A stretch of 64,000 bases of DNA from assembly GCA_015068735.1 (NCBI GenBank), contig SVJW01000002.1:11438-75437 (forward strand), given 5' to 3'. Shown here piece by piece: positions 804-51,858 of the stretch. How positions within the stretch are numbered: the stretch's first letter is position 1; each line of letters opens with the position of its first letter. The position numbers were made by a program, and so were the translations under genes. The notes under the pieces were generated by a model. The model worked only from the letters and a program-made list of their open reading frames with translations. It searched no databases and was not told the origin of the DNA. This DNA comes from Oscillospiraceae bacterium. Lineage in GTDB: Bacteria; Bacillota; Clostridia; UMGS1883.

Positions 804-830
804 AATACCACCTCCATTGAGCTGTATTTT

Positions 831-3824: not shown

Positions 3825-3840
3825 ATCAAAAATTTAACAA

Positions 3841-4764
3841 TTAACCTAATTTTGTTCCTTTTTCTATCTTATGTCCGCGAAGATAGTCTTCCACAGACAT
3901 TTTCTTTTTACCCTCAATTTTAATTTCCTTTATAAGAACGGACCCGTCACCGCAAGCAACTAAAATTCCGTCATTATCGGCAGAAATTACTTCTCCGGGG
4001 TTGCCACTTTGTGTGGATTTATAAACAAAATCAACCACAAAACGTTTGCCGCTTATAAAACTGAACGCTTTGGGCCAGGGATTAAGCCCCCTTACTTTAT
4101 TATAAATCTGTTCATTTGTACTATTCCAGTCAATTTCACCCTCTGCCTTGGAAAGCTGAGATGCGTAGGTAGAAAGACTGTCATCCTGCTTTTTCGGGGA
4201 AAGAGTGCCTTGTTCAAGAGCATCCAGCGTTTCAAGAAGAACTTTTCCGCCGAGAATTGCCAAAGCATCATGATATTCCCCTGCTGTTGTTTCTTCTCCT
4301 ATGGGAAGTTCTTTCTTTATGAGCATATCGCCTGTATCAAGCCCTTTCTCCATATACATGCTGGTAACACCGCTGACCTTCTTGCCATCAATTACGGCAC
4401 GTTGAATGGGAGCAGCTCCACGATATTCGGGAAGCAGGGAGCCGTGAATATTGATACATCCGTATTTGGGGAAATTAAGAATATACTCAGGAAGAATTTT
4501 TCCGTATGCTACAACAATGATAACGTCAGGCTTATATTCTTCAAGCAAGGGAAGAATAGCTTCGTCCCTGAGTGTTTCCGGCTGGTATACGGGTATGTTT
4601 TTCTCCAATGCGTAAACCTTTACCTCGGGCATTGCCATCTCGTAGCCTCTGCCCTTGGGTTTATCGGGCTGTGTGATTACGCATACAACATCCCTGTTGT
4701 CTTCTACCATTGATTTGAGAGAGACCTCCGCAAATTCGGGAGTTCCCATAAACATTATACGCAT
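3841..4764 (-). CDS. fmt: Methionyl-tRNA formyltransferase
   Basis: 307 aa ORF with an MRIMFMGTPEFA N-terminus and the HGSLLPEYRGAAPIQRA formyltransferase motif. It lies directly downstream of def. Confidence 0.9.
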   Translation of the reverse strand: MRIMFMGTPEFAEVSLKSMVEDNRDVVCVITQPDKPKGRGYEMAMPEVKVYALEKNIPVYQPETLRDEAILPLLEEYKPDVIIVVAYGKILPEYILNFPKYGCINIHGSLLPEYRGAAPIQRAVIDGKKVSGVTSMYMEKGLDTGDMLIKKELPIGEETTAGEYHDALAILGGKVLLETLDALEQGTLSPKKQDDSLSTYASQLSKAEGEIDWNSTNEQIYNKVRGLNPWPKAFSFISGKRFVVDFVYKSTQSGNPGEVISADNDGILVACGDGSVLIKEIKIEGKKKMSVEDYLRGHKIEKGTKLG

Positions 4765-4768
4765 AAAA

Positions 4769-5239
4769 TTACTCCTCTTGGTTCAGGTCAAACACCTTTT
4801 CTGCCTTTTCTACATATAAGATACCCTCAAGATGGTCACATTCGTGACAGATACAGCGAGCATAAAGTCCTTCGCCCGTAAATTCAAATTCATTGCCGTC
4901 ACGGTCAAATGCACGGACGGTAGCCTTCTCGGGACGGGTTACTTCGCCTGCTTTACCGGGCACGCTGAGGCAACCTTCCGTGTCGGTTACACTTCCCTCG
5001 GTATGGGTTATTACGGGGTTTATAAGCTCCAATATTCCATCCTCTTCACCGAGATCGATAACAACCACTCTTCTTAAAATTCCCACCTGAGGTGCGGCAA
5101 GACCGACACCGTTGGCAAGAATCATTGTATCTTGCATATCATCTAAAAGGTCGTGGAGTTTTCTGTCAAAATTTTCTACTTCACGACATTTCTTTTTAAG
5201 GCAGGAGTCTCCTATCTCTCGTATTTTTCTTATAGCCAT
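4769..5239 (-). CDS. def: Peptide deformylase
   Basis: 156 aa ORF with all three PDF motifs: GVGLAAPQVG, EGCLSVPG and HECDHLEG. Confidence 0.9.
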   Translation of the reverse strand: MAIRKIREIGDSCLKKKCREVENFDRKLHDLLDDMQDTMILANGVGLAAPQVGILRRVVVIDLGEEDGILELINPVITHTEGSVTDTEGCLSVPGKAGEVTRPEKATVRAFDRDGNEFEFTGEGLYARCICHECDHLEGILYVEKAEKVFDLNQEE

Positions 5240-5462
5240 AATTTTTTCTCCTTTTTAACTGTGTTTAAGCGTTACTTGTACAGGGGATAGTTAAGGGCCT
5301 GCCCTGACAATAAATTTCGTCAAAACCGGGGGCATGTACCTCGGTTTTGACACCTTGCAAGGGCTGATGCGGTGAGCACCGCGCGAGCGAAAGCCCTTTT
5401 CTCGAAGCGAAATATTTTCGTCAGAAACTTTTCACTTCGAAAGGATGACTTGTCATCCGTCT

Positions 5463-7895
5463 TTAATTCATGCTATACGGGTTTATGTCAGCAACTATCG
5501 ATAAATCGGAGTTGCGTTTTTGTGAGCTTTCATAGATTGCCTCACGAAGAATTTTTATAAACTCCTCGTCAGCTTTGCATTTAAGCCATAGCCTCACTCG
5601 GTGCCGTCCTTGAATGCGGCTCAGAGGTGCTGCGGCAGGTCCGTAAAATGAGCAATTATCGTATGAACGTAGTGCCACTCTCAGCTTCATTGCAATTTCA
5701 GCAGCTTTCTTTTGGGCTTCCTCTTTGTCGGAGGAAGAAACGGTTATATTTATAATGTCGCAGAATGGGGGATATAAAAACTCCCGTCTGTACATAATTT
5801 CTTCTTCATAAAATGCTTTGTAATCCTGTTTTGCCGCAAGTAGCAGCGTGGGATTTTCCGGAGAATAGGTCTGAATGACACATCTTCCTTCTTTTTCGCC
5901 TCTGCCGGCTCTTCCGCAAACTTGGGTTATAAGGTTAAATGTACGCTCCTGCGCACGGAAATCGTCAACATTGAGCGAGGCGTCCGCTGCCAGTACACCC
6001 ACAAGCGTCACATCTTCAAAATCCAGTCCCTTTGTAACCATTTGCGTTCCCAGAAGTATGTCAATATTTTCATCTGTGAATTTATCCAAAAGCTTTTCGT
6101 GACCTCTTTTTCCGCTTGTGGTATCGGCATCCATTCTGAGGATTTTTCCATCCGGAAAAATGGATTCAATCTGCTCCTCGGCTTTTTGCGTTCCCTTGCC
6201 GAAATCCCGGACCCTTGTACTTTGACAGTTGGGACATACGGCATTGACTTTTTCCCTGTGACCGCAGTAATGACAGGTAAGCACATCACCGTTTTTGTGA
6301 TAAGTAAGGGAAACATTGCAGTTGGGACAGGTAAACACAAAACCACAGTCCCTGCAGGAAATGAAAGTCGAATAACCGCGTCTGTTAAGAAACAGAATAG
6401 TTTTTTCCCTGCGATTGATGTTTTCGCGAATTTCGGTGGCAAGCAGCCTGCTGAGAACGGTTTTGTTGCCGTCTTTTAATTCCTGACGCATATCTGAAAT
6501 GAAAACATCGGGAAGAGGTTTCTTATTAAAACGGTCAAGAAGCTCAATCAATGTATAGTCGCCCTGTTTTGCTTTGTAATAGCTTTCAATTGACGGGGTT
6601 GCACTTCCCAGAATAAGCGGACAATTATGCTTTTTTGCAAGGAAATGTGCAATATCTCTGGCGTGATAACGGGGGGAGGACTCCGACTTATAGGATTGCT
6701 CGTGCTCCTCGTCGATTATTATTGCGCCCACATTGTCGCAGGGAGCAAAAATTGCACTTCGCGCACCGATTATTACGGAAGCATCTCCGCGCCTTATTCT
6801 TCTCCACTCGTCAAGGCGTTCTCCGAGAGAAAGGGCACTGTGAAGAACGGCAACTTTGTCGCCAAATCGATTATAAAAACGACTTGTCATCTGTGGAGTA
6901 AGAGAAATTTCGGGAACGAGAAGAATTATCTGTTTCCCGTTTTTTAGGGCATTTAAGGCGATTTTCATATACACTTCGGTTTTACCACTGCCGGTAACAC
7001 CGTGTATTAAAAATGTGCCTGAATTCTTTTTTAATATTGTGTCAGCCGCCATTTTCTGAGAATCTGTCAGGACAAGGGGCTCTGAATCTCCGCTTTTCTT
7101 TCCCTCTAAGGGGTTGCGGAGAATTTCCGCTTCTCTGTAGGAAACAAGTCCTTTTATGTGAAGTGCTTCAACGGCGTTTCTTGTTGCACCGGAAGCAGCC
7201 ACAATATCAGAAACGCTCAGCTCACCAAATTCTGCTACAGTTTTAAGAACTGCCGCCTGTTTGGGAGCAGATTTGGATAACTTTTCGATGTGATAAGAAA
7301 TATCTTCTTCACCTGCGTAATACGCCAATCTTACGGTTTTTTCATTTGCCCGGCGTTTGTCGGTAATGCTTTTTTCACAAATTTCTTTTTTTATGAGAGC
7401 ATTCACCGTCGCTCTGGCATTTCTGCCAAGGGTGTTTTTAATTTGCGTCATTTCGGCACTGCCTTCATTTTGCTCTAAAAGTAAAATGAGCTGTTCCTGT
7501 GCTGTGCCTTTAACAAGATTTTTCTTTTCAAAATATTTGTGACTGAGAGAAATCCATTCTTCAAATTTTGCATCTGTCCCCGGGGGAATGCATAACTGTG
7601 CCGCTTCGGAAAAAGTGCAAAAGTACCGCTTCCGCATGAAAAAGCACAATTCGATACCCTTTTTAGTGAGTACGGGGAAATTATCCGTCACAGAGCGAAT
7701 GGGTTTAAGAGAATCAAAATCGCTTTTCTCTTTAACTTCCGTCACGAACGCCTCTTTGGGCATATTTCCGCCACCGAAAGAAACCTTCACCCTCACTCCG
7801 GGCATAACCTTATCCTCCAATTCCTTGGGAACAAGATAATCGAAGGGCTTGTCGATATTCAGGTTTGTAGTATTAACATAAACCTGAGCAATCAT
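5463..7895 (-). CDS. priA: Primosomal protein N' (replication restart helicase PriA)
   Basis: 810 aa ORF with the Walker A motif GVTGSGKTEV, the DExH box IIDEEH and a Cys-rich zinc-binding insert (CRDCG...CPNC...CHYCGH). It is adjacent to rpoZ. Confidence 0.9.
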   Translation of the reverse strand: MIAQVYVNTTNLNIDKPFDYLVPKELEDKVMPGVRVKVSFGGGNMPKEAFVTEVKEKSDFDSLKPIRSVTDNFPVLTKKGIELCFFMRKRYFCTFSEAAQLCIPPGTDAKFEEWISLSHKYFEKKNLVKGTAQEQLILLLEQNEGSAEMTQIKNTLGRNARATVNALIKKEICEKSITDKRRANEKTVRLAYYAGEEDISYHIEKLSKSAPKQAAVLKTVAEFGELSVSDIVAASGATRNAVEALHIKGLVSYREAEILRNPLEGKKSGDSEPLVLTDSQKMAADTILKKNSGTFLIHGVTGSGKTEVYMKIALNALKNGKQIILLVPEISLTPQMTSRFYNRFGDKVAVLHSALSLGERLDEWRRIRRGDASVIIGARSAIFAPCDNVGAIIIDEEHEQSYKSESSPRYHARDIAHFLAKKHNCPLILGSATPSIESYYKAKQGDYTLIELLDRFNKKPLPDVFISDMRQELKDGNKTVLSRLLATEIRENINRREKTILFLNRRGYSTFISCRDCGFVFTCPNCNVSLTYHKNGDVLTCHYCGHREKVNAVCPNCQSTRVRDFGKGTQKAEEQIESIFPDGKILRMDADTTSGKRGHEKLLDKFTDENIDILLGTQMVTKGLDFEDVTLVGVLAADASLNVDDFRAQERTFNLITQVCGRAGRGEKEGRCVIQTYSPENPTLLLAAKQDYKAFYEEEIMYRREFLYPPFCDIINITVSSSDKEEAQKKAAEIAMKLRVALRSYDNCSFYGPAAAPLSRIQGRHRVRLWLKCKADEEFIKILREAIYESSQKRNSDLSIVADINPYSMN

Positions 7896-7897
7896 AA

Positions 7898-8137
7898 TTA
7901 TTCCTCAACAGTTTCTTTGCTTGCTTCATATTCAGCAACAGCATCGGAAAATCTCTGGGATGCACTGCCTTTTACACACTTGATTTTGCCGTTTGCAATT
8001 TCGTTTATTGCACGGGAAACTGTCTTATCGTTTCCGGAGTCATTCTGAAGCTGGCGTGCGCGCTTTGCTGTAAGAACAACAAGTGAATAACGGGAATCAA
8101 GTCCCTCCATAAGCTTGGAAATTTCGGGATACAACAT
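7898..8137 (-). CDS. rpoZ: DNA-directed RNA polymerase subunit omega
   Basis: 79 aa ORF between gmk and priA, with an RpoZ-like [12 protein letters not shown] core. Confidence 0.8.
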
Positions 8138-8152
8138 AATAATTACCTTCCT

Positions 8153-8761
8153 TTATTTAATAAATTCTTCTTTCAAATACTCATAATTGCGAGCCATTAC
8201 ACATTTTTCCGCTTCAATGATGCTGTGAAGCACACATACCGCATTTTCAACGGTGTCATTGGTAAGCGTATAATTATATTTATCTATGTATTTAAACTCC
8301 GCTTTTGCTCGCTGGAGCCTTTTTGCGATTACATCATCAGTTTCCGTTCCTCTTCCGCGGAGACGGTTTTCCAATTCTTCCATAGACGGAGGAATTACAA
8401 ATACGAACACCGCTTCCGGATAGTGAGAACGAACCTGAAGTGCGCCCTGTACTTCTATTTCGAGAATTACGTTCTTGCCCTCGTCAAGTTTTTCCATAAC
8501 GGCATCCTTGGGAGTTCCGTAGTAATTGTCACAAAAAACTGCATGTTCCAAAAATCCGCCTGCATCAATTTTTTTCCGAAACTCGTCATGAGAAAGGAAA
8601 AAGTAGCTGACGCCGTCCACCTCGCCTTCGCGGGGAGCACGGGTGGTGGCTGACACGGACAGAGCGCAGTCATCGTATTTACTCAGATACTCCTTGCATA
8701 TAGTTCCCTTTCCAACGCCTGAGGGACCGGAAACTACAAGCAGTAAACCTTTTTTAGTCAT
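8153..8761 (-). CDS. gmk: Guanylate kinase
   Basis: 202 aa ORF with the P-loop GPSGVGKGT and a guanylate kinase fold pattern. It lies in the conserved remA-gmk-rpoZ context. Confidence 0.9.
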
Positions 8762-9023
8762 TTATATCATCCTCTTCTGTTATTTCTGTATAGCTACCGT
8801 GACGGATAGCAATAGCGTCGGGTGTCAATGCTGACAAAACAACGTGCTCGCTGTCCATAACGATAACGCTTTTTGTTTTTCTGCCGTAAGTTGCATCTAT
8901 AAGCATTCCCTTTTCGCGGGCTTCCTGTGCAATTCTTTTCACAGGGGCGCTTTCGGGAAGAGCTATGCTTATTATTCTTTCATCGGAAACAAGATTTCCG
9001 AAGCCGATATTGATTAGTTTCAT
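8754..9023 (-). CDS. remA: DUF370 protein RemA/YlzA-like (extracellular matrix regulatory protein homologue)
   Basis: 89 aa [13 protein letters not shown]..., typical of the RemA/YlzA family, located between yloC and gmk. Confidence 0.7.
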
Positions 9024-9294
9024 AATGGTTATTCCTTTACATAAGGTCTATTCACGAGTGTATAAAAATGCACAGAACGCAAAAGCACACCAATGTTATA
9101 TTTGTAGTTACCATTAATTTCCGAAAGTTATACTTTGGTAAAAATTCGCTTGGACGAATTTTTTATTATATATGCTTTTGCTACGAACAAACTTCACCTC
9201 TCGCTGTATACGCATACAGCTTCGGGTAACCCACGGCAAGCCGTGGTTCAGTTTGTCCGTTCTGCACTATTTTTCTCCACTCTAAAGAACAGGT

Positions 9295-10173
9295 TTATTC
9301 TACATTTTGGATTTGTTCTCTAAGTTTCTCAATTTCAGCCTTAACGTCTATTACAATTCTTGCAACATCAAGGTCATTGGACTTAGAGCCGATTGTGTTA
9401 ATTTCTCTGTTCATTTCCTGAATAAGGAAATCAATCTTTCTTCCCACGCTTCCGCCCTCGTCAAGCATCTTTGTAAACTGGTCAACGTGGCTTCTGAGAC
9501 GTACGGTTTCTTCATTTACATTTACCTTATCGGAGAAAATGGCAACCTCTGTAAGAAGTCTTGTTTCATCGTATGTGGCGCTTCCTAAAATGTCGCGCAT
9601 TCTTTCTTCAATTCTCTGTCTGTATTCGGTAACAATCTGAGGAGATCTCTTTTCAACCTCCGCCGTTGCATTGGCAATAAAGGAAAGATGTTCCTTAAGG
9701 TCTGCAACAAGCTTTTCGCCCTCTGCAATACGCATTGTGTCAAAGCCGTCAAGAGCCTCGGAAAGGGCTGAAAGAATTGCGTTTGAGATAACTTCTTCAT
9801 CTACATCAGCTTTATCAACCGTAAATACATCAGGAATACGAAGAAATGTCTCTGCCGTTGCGTTTGAGGAAACTTCAAGCTCCTCAGAAAGAGTTCTGAG
9901 CCCTGCAAGATATTCACGGGCAAGAGCCGCATTTACCTTAACAACGCTGTCATCCTCACCGTTTGTTTCCACATTTACATATATGTCCACCTTGCCGCGG
10001 TTAATCCTTGCTGATGCGGTTTTTCTGATAGCATCCTCCATAAATGTATAGATGCGGGGCATCTTTATGGAAAAATCGCTGTATCTGGAATTGACCGATT
10101 TAATCTCAACGGTAAAAGTTTTTGTGCCTGCTTCCGCTTTTCCGCTGCCGTAGCCTGTCATACTTTTTATCAT
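9295..10173 (-). CDS. yloC: YicC/YloC-family stress-induced protein
   Basis: 292 aa ORF with YicC N- and C-terminal regions. It is the first gene of the conserved yloC-remA-gmk-rpoZ block. Confidence 0.8.
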   Translation of the reverse strand: MIKSMTGYGSGKAEAGTKTFTVEIKSVNSRYSDFSIKMPRIYTFMEDAIRKTASARINRGKVDIYVNVETNGEDDSVVKVNAALAREYLAGLRTLSEELEVSSNATAETFLRIPDVFTVDKADVDEEVISNAILSALSEALDGFDTMRIAEGEKLVADLKEHLSFIANATAEVEKRSPQIVTEYRQRIEERMRDILGSATYDETRLLTEVAIFSDKVNVNEETVRLRSHVDQFTKMLDEGGSVGRKIDFLIQEMNREINTIGSKSNDLDVARIVIDVKAEIEKLREQIQNVE

Positions 10174-10227
10174 AGGAAAAACTCCATTCTGTCTGTGTGT
10201 GGGTATAGCACCCCATAATTATTTTAC

Positions 10228-10257
10228 ATTATATCATATATAATGTATTTTAGTCAA
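10228..10257 (-). promoter_or_regulatory. Sigma-A-type promoter for yloC on the minus strand: -35 TTGACT (rc of 10252-10257) and -10 TATAAT (rc of 10228-10233), 18 nt spacer
   Basis: Both hexamers are consensus or near-consensus. The -35 box lies inside a perfect 11-bp inverted repeat (10252-10281). The predicted TSS is about 45 nt upstream of the yloC ATG. Confidence 0.45.
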
Positions 10258-10301
10258 CCGTTTTGTGGTGAACGGTTGACTAAAACATTTATGGAGAACA
10301 T

Positions 10302-10351
10302 AAAAGCAAAGCAGGATGCAGAAGTAATTTTCTGCATCCTGCTTTGCTTTT
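10302..10351. terminator. Bidirectional intrinsic terminator (22-bp perfect stem, 6-nt loop, A/T-tract arms) 10 nt after the malic enzyme stop
   Basis: AAAAGCAAAGCAGGATGCAGAA gtaatt TTCTGCATCCTGCTTTGCTTTT. The stem arms end in T-runs on both strands. Confidence 0.6.
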
Positions 10352-10360
10352 ACCGAATTT

Positions 10361-11533
10361 TTATATCCTTGCTACACCTGTTTTTCTTGCGGCTTCCGCA
10401 ACGGCATCGGCAACGGTTTTTCCTACCCTTTTGTCGAATGCCTTGGGAATAATGTAATCAGGTGCAAGCTCGTCGTCACTTACCAATGAAGCGATTGCAA
10501 AGGAAGCCGCCATTTTCATTTCATCATTGATATCGCTTGCTCTTACATCCAATGCACCGCGGAAAATTCCGGGGAATGCAAGAACGTTATTTATCTGATT
10601 GTCAAAATCGCTTCTGCCGGTACCTACAACTGCAGCACCTGCTTTAAGGGCAAGGTCGGGCATAATTTCAGGTGTGGGGTTTGCCATGGGGAATACGATT
10701 GCACCATCTGCCATAGATTTAACCATTTCTTCGGAAACAATTCCCGGTGCAGAAACGCCGATAAATACATCAGCATCTTTCATAGCATCGGCAAGTGTAC
10801 CCTGTTTATGCTCTTTATTGGTGATTTTTGCAAGCTCTTTATGTGCCTCGGAAAGCTCTTTCATTCCCTCGCAGATTATACCGAAACGGTCAACCATAAC
10901 AAGGTTTTTTACGCCAAGCTTCATAAGATGAAGTCCGATTGCCGTTCCTGCACTTCCTGCACCGTTAATTACAACCTGCACTTTTTCAATGTCTTTTTTT
11001 ACAACCTTAAGCGCGTTGAGCATAGCAGCTGCAACAACGATTGCAGTACCGTGCTGGTCATCGTGAAATACGGGAATATCGCAGATTTCCTTTAATCTTC
11101 TTTCTATCTCAAAGCATCTTGGTGCGGCAATGTCCTCAAGGTTGATTCCGCCGAAGCTGCCGGAAATATTGTAAATAGTCTGAACGGCTTCGTCCACATC
11201 TTTTGTCTTGATACAAAGGGGGAATGCATCAACATCTGCAAATTCTTTGAAGAGGACACATTTCCCCTCCATTACGGGCATTCCTGCCTCAGGACCGATG
11301 TCACCGAGACCGAGGACAGCCGTACCGTCTGTAATAACTGCCACAAGATTGTTCCTTCTTGTAAGTTCATATGACTTGGAAATATCTTTCTGTATTTCAA
11401 GGCATGGCTCGGCAACGCCCGGTGTGTATGCAAGGGAAAGCTCCTCGGAATTAGTTACTTTCGCCTTTGCAACAACTTGAATTTTGCCGTTCCATTCGTA
11501 ATGTTTTTTTAGTGATTCTTTTCTGATATCCAT
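10361..11533 (-). CDS. NAD(P)-dependent malic enzyme (short form, YtsJ/MaeB-like)
   Basis: 390 aa ORF with a malic enzyme N-terminal domain and the NAD-binding motif [14 protein letters not shown]. Confidence 0.85.
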
Positions 11534-11544
11534 AATTTATCCCC

Positions 11545-12627
11545 TCAGTTAATTCTTGCTACTTCTGCACACATAAGTAAGAACGCGCCTACACCGTGAA
11601 GGTCATTTGCAACGGTGGGACGTTCAATATATCCCTGATAATCCTTAACGCCTGTTCCTACGCAAACCTTATTGACATAGATTTCGTCGCCCTTCTTTTC
11701 CACGCTGTCATAAATTGCATCGAAGCATTCATTTACATAATCTGTATAGCTCTTATCCAAGATACCCATATAAATTGCCTTGGCAATTGCGGCAGTGAAA
11801 AGACAACTACAGGATGTTTCAATCCAGTTTCCTGCACAGTCGCCCTTGTCAATAACCTGATACCACATTCTCTTCTGTGCGTCTCTGTATTTAATAATGC
11901 TTGCAAGAACAGCCTTTTCAATTTCGATAAGCTTTTCTCTTCTGGGGTGATTATCAGGCATAAACTGTAAAATATCTAAAATTGCAACAACATACCAGCC
12001 CTGAGCTCTGCCCCAGACTTCAGGAGAAAGTCCTGTTGCAGGGTCTGCCCATTCAACTTCCTTTGATTCGTCCCAAGCGTGGAACATAAGTCCGGTTTTT
12101 GCATCGAGCATATTTTCGTACATAATTACTGCCTGCTCAGCAGCTTCATCCAGAAACTTTGTTTCACCGCTGAAAACAGCATATTCTGCCTGAATGGGCC
12201 CTCCCATATACAAAGAATCCAGCCACATCTGATTGGGGTGCATGTCCTTGTGCCAGAAACCGCCGGCATTGTTCTTTTTCCAGGTTCTTAATATATCAAT
12301 CAGCGTACCCAGAGCAATTTTATATTTTTCATCCTTTGTTCTCTCATAAAGAGGGAAGAGCAGGATTCCCGGCTGAATATCGTCAAGACGGGTGGGGTCA
12401 TATGTATCAATTGTACCGTCTTCCTGAATAATAGAATCAACCCACGCTTTTATATAATCGTAATATTTCTCTTCTCCTGTAAGTTTGTAATTATTCATCA
12501 TGCCGGACAAAAATACACCCTGGTGGTAATGGAATAATTTTTCCGGGGGAAGATCCTTTGCATTTTTAAAGTTACTCATCATAGTATCGCAGAGTCTGCG
12601 AGCAGTGTCTAATACTTTTTCTTTCAT
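11545..12627 (-). CDS. GH88/GH105-family unsaturated (rhamno)galacturonyl/glucuronyl hydrolase (YteR/YesR-like)
   Basis: 360 aa cytoplasmic ORF with an (alpha/alpha)6-type sequence pattern. It is paralogous to the ORF at 58836-59957, and both resemble B. subtilis YteR/YesR. Confidence 0.75.
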   Translation of the reverse strand: MKEKVLDTARRLCDTMMSNFKNAKDLPPEKLFHYHQGVFLSGMMNNYKLTGEEKYYDYIKAWVDSIIQEDGTIDTYDPTRLDDIQPGILLFPLYERTKDEKYKIALGTLIDILRTWKKNNAGGFWHKDMHPNQMWLDSLYMGGPIQAEYAVFSGETKFLDEAAEQAVIMYENMLDAKTGLMFHAWDESKEVEWADPATGLSPEVWGRAQGWYVVAILDILQFMPDNHPRREKLIEIEKAVLASIIKYRDAQKRMWYQVIDKGDCAGNWIETSCSCLFTAAIAKAIYMGILDKSYTDYVNECFDAIYDSVEKKGDEIYVNKVCVGTGVKDYQGYIERPTVANDLHGVGAFLLMCAEVARIN

Positions 12628-44648: not shown

Positions 44649-44686
44649 AAAAGGTCGTTTAACCGCAAGGTTAAACGACCTTTTTT
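44647..44686. terminator. Bidirectional intrinsic terminator shared by the convergent EamA and MATE genes
   Basis: AAAAAA GGTCGTTTAACC gcaa GGTTAAACGACC TTTTTT is a perfect 12-bp stem with an A-run on one side and a T-run on the other. The MATE stop codon lies inside the stem. Confidence 0.75.
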
Positions 44687-46035
44687 AGTTTCGATATAGC
44701 AGGTATGTATGTAATAAATAAAGTTATGATTGACAGAATCCATCCGATGGGCCATACAAGATAAAGGAATGTGAGATTGGGGAAGAGCGGAAAAATTACA
44801 TATACCCATATAAATCTTAATATACACATATACACGAGTGTCGCAATTGTGGGGATAATCGGTTTTCCCATCCCCCTCAGAGTTCCGCACATTACTTCAT
44901 TTATACCGCAAATAAAATATGTACTTGAAATAATAATCATTTTTTGCCTTGAATACTCGATGACAGCAGGTGTGGATGACATAATAGAGGATAGTTGCCT
45001 TGAAAAGATTGCAGAAAATGCACCGAAAGTTCCACCGAAAAGCGCGGTAATCATTATAGCATTCCATACAACCTGCTTTACTCTTTGTATGTTTTTTGCA
45101 CAGATATTCTGTGCCACATATGGCGTTACGGCAAGTGCCGGAGCGTAAGAGATCTGATATAAAATTCCGTCAAACTGGTTGGCTATGGATATTCCCGTGG
45201 TAGCATCGGCACCAAACCCGTTAACTGCTGTGGTGATTACTACATTTGCCAGGGAATATAACGAACTTTGCAGTCCTGCAGGAACTCCGATAAATAAAAT
45301 TTCTTTAAGCTCCCGCGCTGAAAAACGGAGCTTCTTAAATTCAAAAGAAAAAGTATTTTTGTTTTTAAGTAATGCCCTGAATGCGAGAAAGGAAGAAACC
45401 AGATTTGCAATAATCGTGGAAAGTGCAACACCTTCTACCGTCATATCAAGCTGTGAAACAAAAATAACAGTGAATACGACTTTTATTACTCCGCCAAGGA
45501 GCAGGTAGTACATAGGCCTTTTCGTATCTCCCGTGGCACGGAGTATGGCGGCACAGAAGTTATACATCATCATCAGAGGGATGCCGTAAAAATATATTTT
45601 AAAGTATACCGTAGCATCCCGTAAAAGATCATGGGGGCAGTTTGTCATTCTCAAAAATTTTTCCGAAAATGTGACACCTACCGCCATCAGAATCAATCCG
45701 CCTGTTATAGCAAGTAATATAGATGTCATAACTGCTTTGTTGGCAAGGGCTTTATTGCCTGCGCCCAGTCTTTTTGCAACAACTACGTTTGCACCGGCAG
45801 AAATTCCTATAAGCAGACTGGTGAAAAGCGTTATAAGCATTCCGCAAGCTCCTACAGCACCGACAGCCCTGTCGTTGGAAAACCACTTAAGAGCCGTCAT
45901 ATCCATAATATTAAATAATGTCTGCGCAACGTTCATAATCATAATAGGGATTGACATTGCAAGCAGTCCTTTAAAAATTGAGCCGGACAGCATATTTGTT
46001 GTGCTTTTTCTCATTGTAATCGCCCCTTTATGCAA
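44671..46035 (-). CDS. MATE-family efflux transporter
   Basis: 454 aa ORF with 12 TM helices and a MatE repeat pattern. Confidence 0.8.
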   Translation of the reverse strand: MHKGAITMRKSTTNMLSGSIFKGLLAMSIPIMIMNVAQTLFNIMDMTALKWFSNDRAVGAVGACGMLITLFTSLLIGISAGANVVVAKRLGAGNKALANKAVMTSILLAITGGLILMAVGVTFSEKFLRMTNCPHDLLRDATVYFKIYFYGIPLMMMYNFCAAILRATGDTKRPMYYLLLGGVIKVVFTVIFVSQLDMTVEGVALSTIIANLVSSFLAFRALLKNKNTFSFEFKKLRFSARELKEILFIGVPAGLQSSLYSLANVVITTAVNGFGADATTGISIANQFDGILYQISYAPALAVTPYVAQNICAKNIQRVKQVVWNAIMITALFGGTFGAFSAIFSRQLSSIMSSTPAVIEYSRQKMIIISSTYFICGINEVMCGTLRGMGKPIIPTIATLVYMCILRFIWVYVIFPLFPNLTFLYLVWPIGWILSIITLFITYIPAISKLKKVV

Positions 46036-46121: not shown

Positions 46122-46865
46122 TTGATATATTATGATGTTGGTGATAGTATGAATTATTCAATTAACAGCGTAATCACAGGAAGTCATCCGCATTACCATA
46201 CAGGATATGAGGTTATTGTCGGCATAAAGGGAAACGGCACTTTTTTTATTGAAAATAAGAAAATAGACTTTTATCCCGGAATAATTGTAATTGTTCCGCC
46301 AAATACTCCGCATAGCTCAGTTTTTGAGGGGGAGAATGAGAGAATCTATGTAAACGGAGAATTTGGTCATGTTTTTAACGCGCGTTCGCCCATTGTTATT
46401 TATGATAATTCGCAGAAGGAGGGTATTACGCTTGCAAAAATGATTTTCCGAAACCGATATGCCAAAAACGAGTATTTATCTGCTTTGATTACGGCATTTG
46501 CGCATTTTTTGATGCAAAATCTGAAAAACGACAGTGAAATAAACCTTGCGGTAAAAGAAATAGTAAATGAAATTACGGATTCTTTTTTTGAAAGCACTTT
46601 GGATTTAAAATACCTTCTTAATAAAAGCGGTTATGCAGAAGACTACATGAGAGCAAAATTCAGGGAAGTTACAGGGTATACCCCTGTTGAGTTTTTAACG
46701 AAGGTAAGAATAAATCAGGCGTGTAGCCTTATTGATATGTACGGAAATTCGCTTTCGCTTTCAGAAATAGCGGAAAGATGCGGATACACCGATTATGTGT
46801 ATTTCTCCAGAAAATTCAAGATGATAACAGGTGTGTCCCCAAGAGAATTTATGAAGTTGAAGTGA
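46122..46865 (+). CDS. AraC-family transcriptional regulator (cupin + HTH)
   Basis: The N-terminal cupin resembles AraC_binding. The C-terminal HTH is IAERCGYTDYVYFSRKFKMITGVSPREF. An alternative start at 46149 is possible. Confidence 0.75.
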   Translation: MIYYDVGDSMNYSINSVITGSHPHYHTGYEVIVGIKGNGTFFIENKKIDFYPGIIVIVPPNTPHSSVFEGENERIYVNGEFGHVFNARSPIVIYDNSQKEGITLAKMIFRNRYAKNEYLSALITAFAHFLMQNLKNDSEINLAVKEIVNEITDSFFESTLDLKYLLNKSGYAEDYMRAKFREVTGYTPVEFLTKVRINQACSLIDMYGNSLSLSEIAERCGYTDYVYFSRKFKMITGVSPREFMKLK

Positions 46866-47507
46866 AAGAAAAAGAAATGCACCCAATAAAGGCGGTTTAT
46901 CCCTAAGACCAACCGCCTAATATGAGTGCGTTCTTTTTAGACGAAGTTGCCCTCTCAGGGTTCGTAGTGCAATAACAGGGAGTTTATCTCTCTTCTTTTT
47001 ATTTTATTTTTTGCCAAACAAAATCCGAACAAATGCCTATATTAAGGGAAACAATGTGTTTTTGCCTTTAGTTTTCATTTATGCACGCCATTTTTTGAAG
47101 AGAATGAAATTTTGTAATACGTTCTGTAAGATAACAATTTATCTCTTTGAGTTCTATAGAGAGCGTCAAATATCGTTAAAAAACGCCCGAAAACGCCTAA
47201 AACAGTAGGTTTTGTAAATCTTACTGTTTATTTTTTTGCCATAACGTGTGGAAAATGTGTAACTTCCTATATAGTGTTGTGGCAAATTTGTGGCAAGTTT
47301 TTACATATCAACATCAGTTTCATCGTCAATGATGGGAGAAGGACTAATAGCCTCACATAAAGTCATACTGCTATCTATTATTAAAAGTCAAGTTTCGTAA
47401 ATGATGCTCTTTTATACAATCAACTATAAATCAACGAACAAACCCCTTATTTATAGCCGTTTTAAGATCAATTTTGGGATCCCAGTCAACTATGAGTCAA
47501 GTAAAAA

Positions 47508-48971
47508 TCAAGCCCAGAAAGGAAGATATTTTCTGTTTTTATCCGATGTGGAATCCGGAGATGTTTTAATTAAACCTATTTCGCATGTTTCGTTAAGCAA
47601 CCTGGAAATCATAGAACTATTTTTACTATCAATATTAAATCTTTCTCTTAGTGATGCGTTTGTCATAACATCTCTATTTACGCGTTTAATACAAGCATGG
47701 AGATAGCAAGCTCTATATCTATCTTCTTTTGTCATCTTAGCATACTCTTTATGTGCATATAGAATTACTTTTGTATGATCATTGTAAATTTCGATTTCTG
47801 GAGCAGGTAATTGATAATATTCTGTCTGGAATACAACTTTATCATATCCGCTACCTCTTTCTTCACACACGCCAATTCTTCTCATAAAAGATGCTAGTTT
47901 TTCGTTTCTTGAAACAGGGGGATGGTCAACAAAGCGAGCCGTATCTATTAACGGAAGTCCAGGATTTGTTATTTCAAGTCTATCCTCAAATATTTCAATC
48001 ATGGGACTTGTTCCCTGCATAAAAAAGTTTTGATGTATTATTGCATTTGCTACAAGTTCTCTGATTGCAATTTCAGGATACATGGGCACAACTTTACGAA
48101 TTGCTTTGCCCAAGATTTCGTTGTTAGGCAATAGATTGCTTATATAATCAATCAATCCGGTGAAACCATTTGCATAACCTTTCGTTCCGACTTGTTCTTT
48201 GCTTGCAGAACTAACTCGGTCTGTTCCTTCATATTTAATCACTCTTACAGATTTTCGTTCTAGCGAAGGGAAATCGGAGAGCCTTTTTGCGAATAGAATA
48301 GCACCTAAATTTGTTATATTATAGTTTCCGGTTTCGCATTCGGAAATCATCCCATCATTCAGCAAGGCTTCTATAATACGATCTCTATCGCTTGGTAAAT
48401 CTAAGGATAACATGTCAAAATATGCTGAATAGTCAAGTTCTCTGAGCAAAAATTCGCCTGATACATTTTCCATTGCGATCATAGTTTCAAATGGCTTTTT
48501 TGAAAAAACAGCCCATAACTCGCGCTCTGTGTCAGGAAAATCTTTTAATTTTTTCTTATAGGAGTCAATTCTTATATAGTCGATTGACTTGAATTTAACA
48601 GGACTTGAAAAAGCTCGGCTTATTTCCAAAAGCACCACTTTCTTCTCATTGATTTGAGTCGTATGAAAATAGAATTGAACCTGTGGATCCAATTGCGTAC
48701 TTATCCATAGATCTAGACCTTGGTTTCCGATTTTTTCGGATTGAGGATCAAATGATGTACCAACGACATCGTGTGTTTTGTCATCTATGCCCCAAATCAT
48801 AAAAGCATGTTCCTGATTGAACAATGCTGCGGTATTGGATAAAGCGCTGATATATTCGCCTATCTCTTGTGGATTACAATTATTAGTTTTGAATTCAATC
48901 CAGGGCGATTCGTATTTATGTTCTCTTGCTTCGTTAATTATTAAATCAATCATATTAACATTGTAGGGCAT
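47508..48971 (-). CDS. AlbA_2 (Schlafen-like 'divergent AAA') + HATPase_c_4 ATP-binding protein; candidate abortive-infection/defence or regulatory protein
   Basis: The N-terminal ESPWIEFKTN motif is the AlbA_2 ESxxxE[FY]K signature. The C-terminal region (IRELVANAIIHQNF...) is HATPase_c_4-like. The second ATG (MPYNV...) has a GGAGG RBS. Confidence 0.6.
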   Translation of the reverse strand: MPYNVNMIDLIINEAREHKYESPWIEFKTNNCNPQEIGEYISALSNTAALFNQEHAFMIWGIDDKTHDVVGTSFDPQSEKIGNQGLDLWISTQLDPQVQFYFHTTQINEKKVVLLEISRAFSSPVKFKSIDYIRIDSYKKKLKDFPDTERELWAVFSKKPFETMIAMENVSGEFLLRELDYSAYFDMLSLDLPSDRDRIIEALLNDGMISECETGNYNITNLGAILFAKRLSDFPSLERKSVRVIKYEGTDRVSSASKEQVGTKGYANGFTGLIDYISNLLPNNEILGKAIRKVVPMYPEIAIRELVANAIIHQNFFMQGTSPMIEIFEDRLEITNPGLPLIDTARFVDHPPVSRNEKLASFMRRIGVCEERGSGYDKVVFQTEYYQLPAPEIEIYNDHTKVILYAHKEYAKMTKEDRYRACYLHACIKRVNRDVMTNASLRERFNIDSKNSSMISRLLNETCEIGLIKTSPDSTSDKNRKYLPFWA

Positions 48972-49172
48972 AACATCAACCTCCATCGACTATACAATAA
49001 CATATTTTTTTAAAACAGTCAATATTATTATATCTTTCAATCAAGTAAATTATACTGGATTATTGGGAGTTTGAAGAAAACTGTGTTAAAATTTGCATTT
49101 AATTTCTATTTGCAGTCAAGTAAATATTAAATAAATAATCAAACGTTCTTTGTTTCCGATAAAAAACAGAAT

Positions 49173-50249
49173 TCAACACCAATCCTCATACAATTCCAAT
49201 GGTGTAGGAATATAACCTTGGTCAAACAGTTTAGCTGCTTTGCTTGTTGCGGTTACATAGTTGGTTTCTATATTGGATAGCATCCAAATCATACGGTTCA
49301 CTGCCTTTTTATCCATCCATTTTTTATATGTTGAAATTGCTCCAGCGACGCTTCTCGTATTGTTAGCATATTCTATAAACTCTTTTAAAAGTTCTGTGTT
49401 ATCGGGTTTGTATTCTCCCATATCGATTCTTTTCAAAGCTTCTGAAAGTGTGCAGATTTTTCCATCATTACATATCCTTGATAGATAGTATCGGAATAAA
49501 TAGTCTCCTATTTGCTGGGAAGAATCCATAAAGTCTTGAATGCTCTTCAATTTGAATTTCTTCTTTAATTCGCTGACTTTACCCTCCATACAGCGAATCT
49601 CTATACGAACTATTTTCTCTGTACGCTCTATTTCGGATGCGGGAAATATAGCTTTATTTTTGCCCTTTTGTTCTTTAATCATTTGTCGCTGTTTGTTATA
49701 TATTGAAACCGCTATATAGTTATCGTTGTATACTGTAAAATCATCTTTCATGGGTTTTGTTCGTTTTGACTTTTCATTATATACTTCATAAAGCATAAGG
49801 TGAGGAGGGATATTTGCTCTTTTCATTGTTTTTATATATGCTTTGACTTGCTCCTGGTTTGCAAGTTCTGCGTTAATACAGAAATCGATTCTTCGCATTT
49901 TGCAATCTTCAAGCAGGGGGAGAAGCTTGCATTTATTATGAAGAATGAAGTTCACCTCTTTTTCAAGTAGATCATAATCGTTTGTATCAAAAAGCCCGAC
50001 AAAATCATGATTATCCATGACTCGTCGGGCTGAAATTCTATATATAATATGGTAGGCGTAATAGCCTTTCTTTTTGTTTTTGGTTATAAACATTTTTATT
50101 ATGATCCCCTGTTTGGAAAGCCCCCAGTAACTCATTCCGTTTGATTCTTTTTTCCACTTGTCGGGATCTTTTGTTTTAAGTGTATCTTGAATTAATTTAA
50201 AATCATCACCGCAAAGGGTGTGGCTTACTTCAAATGTATGTATTGTCAT
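49173..50249 (-). CDS. Rep_trans-like replication initiator/relaxase (rolling-circle type), putative
   Basis: 358 aa from the ATG with a GGAGGA RBS (MTIHTFEV...). The motifs RIDFCINAE, VSIYNKQ and IVRIEIRCMEG resemble the Rep_trans RxDxxxD, YDK and RxExR blocks. This assignment was made from memory of the family motifs. Confidence 0.35.
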   Translation of the reverse strand: MTIHTFEVSHTLCGDDFKLIQDTLKTKDPDKWKKESNGMSYWGLSKQGIIIKMFITKNKKKGYYAYHIIYRISARRVMDNHDFVGLFDTNDYDLLEKEVNFILHNKCKLLPLLEDCKMRRIDFCINAELANQEQVKAYIKTMKRANIPPHLMLYEVYNEKSKRTKPMKDDFTVYNDNYIAVSIYNKQRQMIKEQKGKNKAIFPASEIERTEKIVRIEIRCMEGKVSELKKKFKLKSIQDFMDSSQQIGDYLFRYYLSRICNDGKICTLSEALKRIDMGEYKPDNTELLKEFIEYANNTRSVAGAISTYKKWMDKKAVNRMIWMLSNIETNYVTATSKAAKLFDQGYIPTPLELYEDWC

Positions 50250-50372
50250 TGTAAATTCCTCCATAAGTATATTTATATAAATACGCATTTTTATATATGT
50301 AATAATATGATTTATAGCTAGTAATTTAATGCTATAAACTGTAATTATTATTGCATTATCCATCCCCTCCCA

Positions 50373-50391
50373 AGCTTATATAGCTTATATA
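50373..50391. repeat. Tandem 9-bp direct repeat AGCTTATAT x2 about 130 bp upstream of the Rep_trans-like gene (possible iteron or origin remnant)
   Basis: agcttatat agcttatat aaa is seen directly in the sequence. It is flanked by a partial inverted repeat CCTCCC...GGGGAGG. Confidence 0.3.
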
Positions 50392-50477
50392 AACATTATC
50401 CTACCGTGGGGAGGATTGTGAATCATTATTATAAATATGTTATGAAGTTTTGAAATTAAATTTTATTCTAAATAAAG

Positions 50478-50510
50478 GCGTTGCGGAAAATGCCGCAACG
50501 CTCTTTTTTC
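50478..50510 (+). terminator. Orphan rho-independent terminator on the plus strand (GCGTTGCGG-aaaatg-CCGCAACGC followed by TCTTTTTT) with no obvious upstream plus-strand gene
   Basis: A 9-bp GC-rich stem and a T6 run. The sequence upstream contains only an 11-codon ORF. Confidence 0.5.
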
Positions 50511-50919
50511 TATGCGCCGGAAACATTATTGTTAAAAAAGGGTAAAGCATACAATGATTATATGGATTTGAGTCTTGCTGTGCCGATAATATTAGTAAAA
50601 TATATGCTCTTATTAAGTTGCTGCTGTACACACAGTTAGTAGTATTAAATTTAATTATTGAGCACTCAAACACACGAATTGTAGTGCTTTTATTGGTTTA
50701 AAACATATAAACAAAAACCCAACTAAATTGTGGTAAATTTTTGGAAATTATTTTTGTTTTATCTCGTTATTAACAAGAAATTTGGCGTTGAAGGGCAACT
50801 CTGGGTTTCCATATTGATGAAACACGAAAAGTCTATATTTTATAAAAAAAAGACAGTATTAACTAAAGCAATTTATGAGCGTAGGTTTTATAATGATATT
50901 ACAAGGAGGGGTGGATCTA

Positions 50920-51858
50920 ATGATAAGAATTGGTGTAGTAAACATTGACGTCTCTCATCCTCTTGCGTTTGCAAGCATACTAAACAACGGAAACAGGGCA
51001 AAATATGTAGCTGTTTTTAATGATGGTTTTCGCGGAGAGGACGAGGTTAATAACTTTGTTAAGACACAGGGGCTTGAAAAAATTTGCACCAGCATTGAAG
51101 AACTGGCAGATTATGTAGATGTTGGTTTTGTACAGGGATGTAATTGGGATAAGCATTTAGAATATGCCATGGCATTTATCAGCAGAAACAAACCTGTATT
51201 TATTGATAAACCAATTGTGGGTAATGTTGAGGAATGCCGGAAACTGATAGAATTAGAAGAAAATGGTGCGATTATCTTAGGATCATCTTCAGCAAGATAT
51301 TGTAACGAAGTAAGATATTTTTTAACGCTTCCTGAAAGCGAAAGAGGTAAAGTTTTACATATAGATATAACCGTTGGGGTTGATGAATTCAATTATGCGA
51401 TTCATGCGGTTGAAGCAATGTGCGCATTGGCGCAGGCAAAGCCGCTTTCTGTTAAATATGTTGGGACTTCCCATAAAGATAATCAGTCTTGTGAAACATA
51501 CTTTGTGGAATTTGAAGGTGGAACAACGGCGTGCTACCATTGCGTTGAAGGTAATTATGTGAAATTCAATATAATTATATTAACAACCACGAACAGCTAC
51601 TGTATGACCGTGGACAACAATGCTTTGTACGGTGCTTTGCTGGATGAAGTCCTCAATAAACTTGAAGGCAAAAAAAACGCACTTGCAAATATGGAAGAAA
51701 TTACTGACAGTATTAAAGTATCTCTTGCAGGAAAGTGCTCGAAGGAAAACGCCGGAAAGGTTGTGGAAATAAATTCTTCAGAGCTTAAAACAGTTCACTT
51801 TGACGGTTATAAGTTTGAAAAAGAATATGCTGCTAAAGCACAACCGATATATTTGTGA
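50920..51858 (+). CDS. Gfo/Idh/MocA-like protein with a degenerate dinucleotide-binding motif (possible non-canonical or pseudo-oxidoreductase)
   Basis: 312 aa ORF from the ATG with an AAGGAGG RBS. MIRIGVVNIDVSHPLAF replaces the usual GxGxxG motif. A VFIDKPI motif sits in the position of the family EKP motif. The C-terminal alpha/beta domain has a GFO_IDH_MocA_C-like pattern. Confidence 0.4.
   Translation: MIRIGVVNIDVSHPLAFASILNNGNRAKYVAVFNDGFRGEDEVNNFVKTQGLEKICTSIEELADYVDVGFVQGCNWDKHLEYAMAFISRNKPVFIDKPIVGNVEECRKLIELEENGAIILGSSSARYCNEVRYFLTLPESERGKVLHIDITVGVDEFNYAIHAVEAMCALAQAKPLSVKYVGTSHKDNQSCETYFVEFEGGTTACYHCVEGNYVKFNIIILTTTNSYCMTVDNNALYGALLDEVLNKLEGKKNALANMEEITDSIKVSLAGKCSKENAGKVVEINSSELKTVHFDGYKFEKEYAAKAQPIYL

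Follow-up and report, generated by a model that had tools for sequence, protein, structure and literature searches.

A 64,000-nucleotide stretch of an Oscillospiraceae bacterium contig (the window, on which all coordinates below are numbered) is interrupted, between an AraC-family gene (46122-46865, plus strand) and a GFO/IDH/MocA oxidoreductase gene (50875-51858, plus strand), by a 4009-bp islet holding two intact minus-strand genes: one for a 487-amino acid (aa) Schlafen-type ATPase (47508-48971), the other for a 358-aa protein, Rep, which is a candidate nicking-joining enzyme (49173-50249). The locus raises the questions (i) whether the islet is mobile DNA; (ii) how such an element, which encodes no integrase, could move; and (iii) what role its Schlafen gene plays. 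Our comparisons support a foreign, mobile nature of the islet, with a rolling-circle-type Rep at its core and the Schlafen gene as exchangeable cargo of a defence or addiction type. More specifically, we think it rather probable that gut and rumen Clostridia harbour a family of small, modular mobile elements, in which Rep initiates and recombinases integrate, and that the islet is a copy of such an element, acquired horizontally and lacking an integrase.

The islet and its related loci

An earlier note on this DNA, made from the sequence alone, had singled out the islet for its lower GC content and low coding density, and both observations hold: with 33.3% GC against 40.1% for the window, positions 46866-50874 form the lowest 4-kb stretch (only 0.3% of sliding windows are as low), and 63% of the islet is coding. 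The further statement that this is the only region of opposite polarity is incorrect, as the MATE gene (44671-46035) and every gene in 69-12627 likewise use the minus strand. The Rep-Schlafen unit recurs, with 82% nucleotide (nt) identity over window positions 47125-50475, at an unrelated chromosomal site in another metagenome-assembled genome (locus L090; related loci in other contigs carry L numbers), where it lies between Sialidase-CBM genes and a GH88 gene. The flanks of seven close-clade copies, whose Rep proteins share 74-79% aa identity with that of the window in pairwise alignments (a database search gives 75-80% for the same proteins), are mutually unrelated, so that the family occupies seven contexts. 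The lowest GC in the window, the presence of the unit in L090 and the seven unrelated contexts together argue that the islet is foreign and mobile.

What follows Rep differs from copy to copy. The slot holds the Schlafen gene in L090 (Rep 79% and Schlafen protein 96% identical to the window), a small open reading frame (ORF) and RhuM in L115/L116 (Rep 79%), HicB/HicA in L117/L118 (Rep 74%), and a HigBA-like Gp49/HTH_3 pair with a 153-aa gene in L110 (Rep 77%); in L109 (Rep 77%) it is empty, Rep lying directly before a conserved 3' module. In L005 (Rep 75%), the order is rpsI, DUF5677, tyrosine integrase, a 61-aa and a 118-aa gene, Rep and RhuM. Because the slot elsewhere contains RhuM, HicAB, a HigBA-like pair or nothing, we regard the Schlafen gene as cargo, of the defence or addiction type. 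The homology of L109 to the window leaves off at 49114 and restarts at 47505, and in L110, with its Gp49/HTH_3 cargo, the Schlafen coding sequence survives as its last ~17 nt before the 3' module (L110 10654-10670, corresponding to window 47508-47524), a footprint that we read as direct evidence of cargo replacement. Furthermore, synonymous divergence (dS) between the window and L090 amounts to 1.49 in Rep and to 0.58 in the cargo, and backbone and cargo therefore have different histories. DNA comparisons among the copies define a family backbone that consists of a 5' control region (with a tandem, TATAAGCTATATAAGC, and a AAAATGCGTA box), the 358-aa Rep, the cargo slot and a 3' module of ~390 bp.

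No recombinase was found in L090, L109 and L110, nor on the resolved side of L115/L116 and L117/L118. Complete relatives do encode recombinases, of several kinds: a tyrosine integrase in L005 and, in a distant clade, another tyrosine integrase in L111 (Rep, HTH_17, HTH_17, integrase), Tn916-type Int/Xis in L006 and serine recombinases in L112, the last two having the order DUF960, Rep, HTH_17 within a larger element. The three tyrosine integrases of these relatives share only 27-30% mutual identity. A Rep module combined with unrelated recombinases is the modular pattern of those IMEs (integrative, mobilizable elements) that carry relaxases resembling rolling-circle replication (RCR) initiators (MobT/PF02486, PHA00330; Coluzzi et al. 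2017, PMC5357655).

The Schlafen-ATPase cargo

The longest ORF of the cargo gene (47508-48986) would encode 492 aa; however, its ATG at 48986 overlaps the ribosome-binding site (RBS) GGAGG of the ATG at 48971, and the close homologs are all 487 aa long, so we place the start at 48971. Both domains assigned to the 487-aa protein by the earlier note were recovered above the Pfam gathering scores: SLFN_AlbA_2 (PF04326; 2e-16), followed by the GHKL-type HATPase_c_4 (PF13749; 1.2e-21; residues 325-409 of the 492-aa ORF) and a C-terminal tail. The nuclease motif Ex4ExK is intact (E21-SPWI-E26-F-K28), as are the Bergerat/GHKL motifs (R304-E305-x3-N309, NPG at 336-338 and GSG at 373-375), and all of these are invariant in 28 relatives; Ex4(E/D)xK is the nuclease motif of prokaryotic Schlafens (PMC13056530). 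The ratio of nonsynonymous to synonymous divergence (dN/dS) relative to L090 is 0.03, and identity to the proteins of L091 and L096 is still 81% aa despite saturated synonymous sites. The subfamily is very abundant and conserved: 8000 matches were returned, and more than 120 clusters (at 90% identity) share an identity of at least 79%, nearly all of them exactly 487 aa long.

By domain order and motifs, the cargo has the architecture called Schlatpase or, in a second nomenclature, prokaryotic Schlafen (pSlfn)-HisKinase, with or without a helix-turn-helix (HTH), which is the commonest prokaryotic Schlafen type. The earlier note had called this architecture poorly characterised in bacteria, a description that has been overtaken by two recent surveys: 60,692 Schlatpase proteins were counted, mostly small and usually with a C-terminal HTH (bioRxiv 10.64898/2026.05.29.728809), and the HisKinase and HisKinase-HTH classes make up 34% and 19% of pSlfns (PMC13056530, Nat Microbiol 2026). 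The gene is not confined to the Rep family. A second type of small integrative element (L091-L095, for example L093 919-6561; 82% aa identity) carries it in the order 106-aa gene, 60-aa gene, Schlafen, 156-aa gene, IstB/DnaC-like ATPase, Tn916-type Xis and tyrosine integrase.

The characterised relatives SLFN-pAgo, Cash and RorSlfn5 have tRNA as their cleavage target, and it is the GHKL domain that drives tetramerisation (bioRxiv 10.64898/2026.05.29.728809, PMC13056530). By analogy, the cargo could act as a stand-alone, ATP-switched Schlafen-GHKL ATPase that assembles a metal-dependent SLFN nuclease; by cleaving tRNA and arresting translation, the assembled nuclease would provide abortive-infection defence or have an addiction-type function, to the advantage of both element and host. 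A comparison with PADLOC-DB 2.0 gave weak partial matches only (Aga_SIR2-PNTD 1.7e-6, pAgo 3.7e-5, PDC-S50 1.8e-3). The pAgo match joins cargo residues 40-415 to the N-terminal part of the model, which fits the SLFN-GHKL 'Schlatpase' supradomain known from SLFN-pAgos (bioRxiv 10.64898/2026.05.29.728809).

Several results tell against such a role. The cargo has no significant full-length match to a PADLOC defence model, and Rep has no PADLOC match at all; there is no defence island around the islet, and no defence genes adjoin the cargo; HisKinase fusions tested in E. coli gave no protection, which was seen only with DUF262 and Ig-like fusions (PMC13056530); and the C-terminal HTH was not confirmed, as Pfam detects none in the last 87 aa, the AlphaFold 2 (AF2) model, based on a shallow alignment, is poor (predicted local distance difference test, pLDDT, 55), and the helices predicted there are not diagnostic of an HTH. 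Thus, where the earlier note proposed a defence cargo on a mobile element, the mobile DNA is borne out by the swapping of the slot and the L090 unit, and the gene is of a defence type, but defence itself is still a putative function.

Alternatively, instead of an immune effector, the 487-aa protein may be a housekeeping factor or a regulator that binds DNA (COG2865, by its classical annotation a 'transcriptional regulator'), and either travel as a chance passenger or regulate element or host genes. Databases label its homologs 'putative DNA binding domain-containing protein', the relative in L096 stands alone between housekeeping-type genes, and the PADLOC results, the lack of adjoining defence genes and the E. 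coli tests would all be expected of a regulator. We nevertheless consider this unlikely, given that the nuclease and ATP-binding motifs are invariant, that the slot otherwise holds toxin-antitoxin pairs and RhuM while the Schlafen gene also travels in the unrelated integrase-bearing element of L091-L095, and that the family is homologous to the SLFN-pAgo effector module. Moreover, the cargo is replaceable and hence no regulator of the backbone.

Rep, the noncoding modules and mobility

The full Rep ORF (49173-50363) has 396 codons; since its homologs are 347-365 aa long and start with MTIHTFE behind a GGAGG, we place the start at 50249, giving 358 aa. The 38-codon in-frame extension (50363-50250) comes after a purine tract, GGGAGGGG, and is not conserved in L110, and in L090 the ATG matching its start opens a separate upstream ORF of 29 codons; the extension is probably noncoding.

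Pfam gave no match to the window Rep at E<0.01, the best being Phage_CRI (E=0.045, its 13.9 bits lying below the cut-off of 21.7), and none to Rep_trans. A database search returned 126 homologs; among 41 that were aligned, 36 match Phage_CRI (PF05144; best 2.8e-8) and one matches Rep_trans (PF02486). Invariant in these 41 sequences are R120, D122, C124 and N126 (RIDFCIN), S182, Y184 and K186 (SIYNK) and R215, E217, R219 and C220 (RIEIRC), and the three blocks that the earlier note had pointed to (RIDFCINAE, YNK and RIEIR) thus exist, with invariant key residues. We take Y184, R120/D122 and R215/E217/R219 to be the counterparts of the RepD/RepC active site, an assumption that comes from motif patterns rather than from a residue-level superposition, and consider Tyr184 the candidate catalytic tyrosine. 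PDB sequence searches with Rep or its profile found nothing meaningful; the AF2 model, in contrast to that of the cargo a confident one (pLDDT 95.3), has as its only significant PDB fold match the Rep_trans initiator RepSTK1 (4cij; probability 1.0, E 1.3e-4, TM-score 0.31-0.41), and so shares the fold of a solved Rep_trans initiator. Hence the designation as a Rep_trans initiator is right at the level of the superfamily, but not for the Rep_trans hidden Markov model (HMM), which does not match the window protein: Rep belongs to a divergent family within the Rep_trans/G2P superfamily, lying between Phage_CRI and Rep_trans, and is not a member of Pfam Rep_trans.

A profile search of 1.84 billion representatives yielded 1065 Rep family clusters at 50% identity (572 of them at <=1e-10; ~350-400 aa), the distant members of which match Phage_CRI, Rep_trans or neither. 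Rep has no relatives among PLSDB plasmids and INPHARED phages (tblastn) or in a scan of IMG/VR, and no significant PHROG match; a metagenome scan recovered 10 loci, mostly short. In the libraries searched, no description of this family or of its conserved origin-like motif was found. The Rep gene is intact, and its dN/dS of 0.09-0.14 relative to six relatives indicates purifying selection. In L112 (10091-17071) and L113 (4529-11509), the distant Rep element abuts a cluster of a methyltransferase, an MmeI-like enzyme and a PLD-SNF2 helicase (restriction or BREX-like); the broader Rep family can therefore adjoin defence genes.

The region upstream of Rep (50250-50475; like all features below, on the minus strand unless otherwise stated) was delimited by DNA comparison with relatives and is a candidate double-strand origin or origin of transfer (oriT) combined with a promoter. 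From its outer end, it contains a promoter-like site (TTCACA-16-GATAAT, 50395-50422) overlapping a hairpin (ATCCTCCCCACGGTAGGAT, 50398-50416), the family-wide tandem TATAAGCTATATAAGC (50374-50389), the purine tract (50364-50371), the AAAATGCGTA box (50282-50291) and, nearer Rep, the RBS GGAGG. A bidirectional intrinsic-terminator hairpin (50477-50502, assigned to neither strand; 10 pairs, seven of them G-C, with T-runs on both strands) marks the outer edge, and homology to L090, L109 and L110 ends at ~50461-50475. The tandem 9-bp repeat noted earlier upstream of Rep is real: it comprises 2.1 copies of AGCTTATAT (50373-50391), and in 16 of the 17 distinct Rep loci (L005 is the exception) the 16-mer TATAAGCTATATAAGC or a near variant lies upstream of the start codon, at a distance of 110-160 nt. 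Both tandem and AAAATGCGTA box are kept from 100% down to 45% Rep protein identity. As the conservation of the tandem far exceeds that of the Rep protein, we argue that it is a cis-acting site, for which a double-strand origin or oriT would be the natural candidate. RNAalifold predicted no consensus structure for the Rep-upstream region, and the 87 matches of the 16-mer in IMG/VR are all apparently due to chance, with neither a Rep nor a AAAATGCG box nearby.

The cargo slot is bordered upstream by 48972-49172, again defined by DNA comparison, which includes a promoter-like site for the cargo (TTGACT-17-TG-TATTGT, 48994-49022) and two copies of the motif TTTACTTGA(C/T)T (49116-49124 and 49041-49049). 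The same motif recurs at the other slot border (47497-47505), and its copies may be cassette-exchange or operator sites.

The 3' module (47118-47505) was likewise defined by DNA comparison and combines operator-like repeats, a promoter, a small acidic ORF, a short repeat designated O and a hairpin block. In the window, its proximal part (47297-47507) comprises the operator-like repeats TTGACTCATAGTTGACT (47484-47500) and TTGATTTATAGTTGATT (47418-47434), the -35 box of a promoter that is intact in relatives (TTGACT-17-TATAAT) and, as comparison with L109, L110 and L115 reveals, a 5'-truncated relic of the small acidic ORF (47301-47381). In these three relatives the ORF encodes 41-46 aa (L109 9316-9450, L110 10863-10988, L115 9226-9366), is preceded by its own TTGACT-17-TATAAT promoter and follows the pattern M..[LV]IIDS[SG]M[NS]LC with a D/E-rich tail; one guess is that its product is a DNA mimic or regulator. 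O itself is an exact 11-bp tandem, TTGCCACAAAT-TTGCCACAA (47277-47296), and a candidate binding site for a recombinase (att or arm-type) or for Rep. It is invariant in the window, L090, L110, L115/L116 and L005, has one mismatch in L109, and occurs a second time in L110, after the terminal block. With up to five mismatches permitted, the 64 kb contain only three matches to O, of which the exact copy and a degenerate one, O' (17/20; 50728-50747), bracket the islet. O' lies 250 bp outside the Rep control region, in the orientation of O, and is a candidate left att or arm-type site.

Beyond O, a terminal block of ~160-170 bp (47118-47276) is conserved between relatives, including the sequence CTCTCTATAGAACTCAAAGAGATAA (47139-47163) and a hairpin, AAACAGTAAG...CCTACTGTTT (47200-47229), which on the plus strand has the form of an intrinsic terminator. 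Opposite to the Rep strand, the stem and the following TTATTTTTTT (47200-47245) make this terminator a canonical one, and variants in relatives keep the pairing through G-U on the plus strand only, which suggests that it may act as an insulator, blocking transcription that reads in, or that a short antisense RNA may end here. When the 3' block was considered as a single-strand origin, its folds proved only moderately stable (z -1.1 to -3.6), which is not decisive. A terminator-like end hairpin is present in L090, L109, L110, L005 and L116 and missing in the window copy. The idea that O is a dif-type site of an integrative mobile element exploiting Xer (IMEX) was rejected, because O is a direct rather than a dyad repeat and the GC skew shows a trend without a terminus here.

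According to the favoured reading, Rep would nick one strand at or near the conserved tandem, and this would start rolling-circle replication and/or conjugative mobilisation of an excised circle, in the manner of the MobT-type relaxases and RCR initiators of ICEs (elements that are integrative and conjugative) and IMEs. Excision and integration would fall to tyrosine or serine recombinases, which are coded in the complete relatives and lacking in the window copy, and O-type repeats would be the sites of these recombinases. The window copy would thus be stranded, or at best reliant on functions supplied in trans, with local decay in addition.

A number of observations fit this reading less well. 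Consistent with the earlier note, a tblastn search of the 64 kb with three tyrosine integrases as queries detected neither an integrase nor a remnant of one (all matches at E>0.1), and the window also lacks an excisionase, a coupling protein (TcpA) and a clear att pair, to which the 17/20 O' comes nearest. Flanking repeats are absent from L090, L109 and L110, no circular or plasmid form was found among 24 complete contigs, and PLSDB, INPHARED and IMG/VR gave no match. No nick site was identified, and a long-range pyrimidine/purine stem around the tandem was significant in only two of 15 loci (single-sequence DNA folds and duplex tests). In addition, the four fully resolved copies (window, L090, L109 and L110), whose sites are unrelated, have no recombinase gene in the surrounding 8-10 kb and leave no space for remnants; that a recombinase module should have been lost cleanly four times, and independently, would be surprising.

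The same observations can be accommodated if control region, Rep, cargo and 3' module form an autonomous integrase-free element, either a rolling-circle transposon (IS91/ISCR/Helitron-like) or a small RCR plasmid that integrates by Rep-mediated strand transfer. Replication would proceed from the tandem through rep and cargo and end in the 3' block or hairpin, and recombinase genes would be outside the unit because they are upstream of the nick. Such an element would explain why four resolved copies are free of recombinases, with two more so on the resolved side, why every copy keeps an intact Rep under purifying selection, why there are no terminal direct or inverted repeats of at least 11 bp, and why conserved noncoding modules bound the unit at its 5' and 3' sides. 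The smallest copy, that of L109, measures only ~1.85 kb, which also suits this explanation. We nonetheless hold this explanation to be rather improbable. To our knowledge, no protein of the Rep_trans or G2P families transposes, and the lack of circular contigs and plasmid records tells against an autonomous replicon as well. Furthermore, the 'sharp' left boundary is also kept in L006 and L112, inside larger elements in which Rep is internal, so that it marks a functional region and not necessarily a terminus. Finally, the O repeats point to recombinase-type sites: in L005, two exact copies of O flank the integrase-bearing element next to rpsI, each within a 34-bp direct repeat, the only significant flanking repeat (score 44, shuffle maximum 33), and O and O' bracket the window copy more weakly, an unbiased alignment of the window flanks giving no repeat above shuffles. 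The boldest version, in which an integrase-free element of 1.9-3.6 kb would depend on Rep alone for its mobility, as a rolling-circle or single-strand 'peel and paste' type with its origin at TATAAGCTATATAAGC and its terminus in the 3' block, appears quite improbable to us. If true, it would define a transposon class with a non-HUH Rep that shuttles swappable cargo of a defence or addiction kind (Schlafen-ATPase, RhuM, HicAB and HigBA-like) among gut Clostridia chromosomes.

The earlier note had interpreted the islet as an old, decayed insertion. The window copy does show decay: the -10 box, the RBS and the start of the small ORF are deleted, the terminal hairpin is gone and O' is degenerate. 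Rep, however, is intact and the layout recurs at four sites. A simple decayed remnant fits poorly with four resolved copies at unrelated sites that lack a recombinase while Rep is under selection; that reading is therefore doubtful, and the integrase-less layout may be a maintained and possibly mobile form. As to a remnant of a filamentous (inovirus-like) prophage, the matches of Rep relatives to PF05144 Phage_CRI, the replication protein G2P of filamentous phages, are all that would suggest one, and this is highly improbable, as the window and ~20 related loci have no morphogenesis (Zot-like) or coat genes and Rep has neither a relative in IMG/VR or INPHARED nor a significant PHROG match.

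The surroundings of the islet add some further observations. No Rfam families were detected in 46500-51200, and there are no tRNA genes in the window or near the elements at related loci. Four metagenome contigs carry identical islet copies with the window's neighbours. A strain variant (L002, from a metagenome; 99.4% identical) has 301 bp more at window 46959-46964, a junction just outside the element for which no strand applies (L002 4341-4720, window 46910-46982). The insert consists of two 99-bp direct repeats, 97% identical to each other, each with a tRNA-3'-end-like piece (GGTTCGAATCC), a bidirectional terminator and, on the minus strand, a T-arm, acceptor and CCA; ARAGORN called no tRNA. 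Relative to L002, the window sequence is cleanly deleted between two GGTTCG. The region may be a former tRNA-type attachment hotspot beside the islet. A scan of GTDB species representatives with the right-flank protein as query found the sugar operon in relatives at no more than 76% aa identity, with broken upstream synteny.

Significance and comparison with known systems

Within the largest prokaryotic Schlafen class the cargo is nothing out of the ordinary, yet neither a trigger nor a phenotype has been demonstrated for that class, and a natural, highly conserved two-gene cassette that passes from element to element lends itself well to testing it. The element family is the more useful result, with an uncharacterised Rep family of ~1000 clusters at 50% identity, a conserved candidate origin, an exchange slot and repeated occurrence without recombinases. 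If Rep alone moves the element, it would be a new enzyme family among rolling-circle transposons; if it does not, the loci record IME modules that were stranded yet kept under selection, probably since the cargo, Rep or both benefit the host.

The closest parallels are the IMEs of Firmicutes, which likewise are small, reside in the chromosome and join a Rep-like nicking protein to interchangeable recombinases and accessory cargo; the relatives L005, L006, L111 and L112, with their tyrosine or serine recombinases, conform to this pattern. The L005 copy lies directly after rpsI, a known IME target, as in IMESag-rpsI (PMC5090054). However, the window copy and most of the close clade differ from these IMEs in having no recombinase, coupling protein or clear att pair; Rep is not a member of the streptococcal MobT family and its own family mostly falls under Pfam thresholds, while the relaxase of IMESag-rpsI is of the MOBV type.

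With Rep_trans initiators (RepC/RepD of pT181, RepSTK1) and G2P, Rep shares the best fold match, the HMM matches of its relatives, the RxD...YxK...RxE pattern with an invariant tyrosine and a conserved noncoding repeat with a hairpin upstream of its gene, as for a double-strand origin. It departs from them in that the TM-score is only 0.3-0.4 and the identity 11-12%, in its extra C-terminal helical domain of ~100 aa, and in being encoded on the chromosome, with no match among PLSDB plasmids or INPHARED phages. IS91, ISCR and Helitrons offer a functional analogy only: they too have a single gene for a Rep-type tyrosine nuclease, no inverted repeats or long target duplications, conserved dissimilar ends and adjacent cargo, but their enzymes are HUH Y1/Y2 nucleases, and no Rep_trans-type protein is known to transpose.

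The cargo resembles the Schlatpase or pSlfn-HisKinase-HTH class in the order PF04326 then PF13749, the Ex4(E/D)xK motif, a size and tail typical of the majority class and the association with mobile elements, although its subfamily is unusually conserved (>120 clusters at >=79% identity). It has no fused sensor (pAgo, Csx15, Ig-like or DUF262), and stand-alone members have no demonstrated trigger or defence phenotype. The Schlafen gene is thus a further member of a known, recently described class, and the integrase-less layout of Rep plus slot is a variant of the IME/RCR theme.

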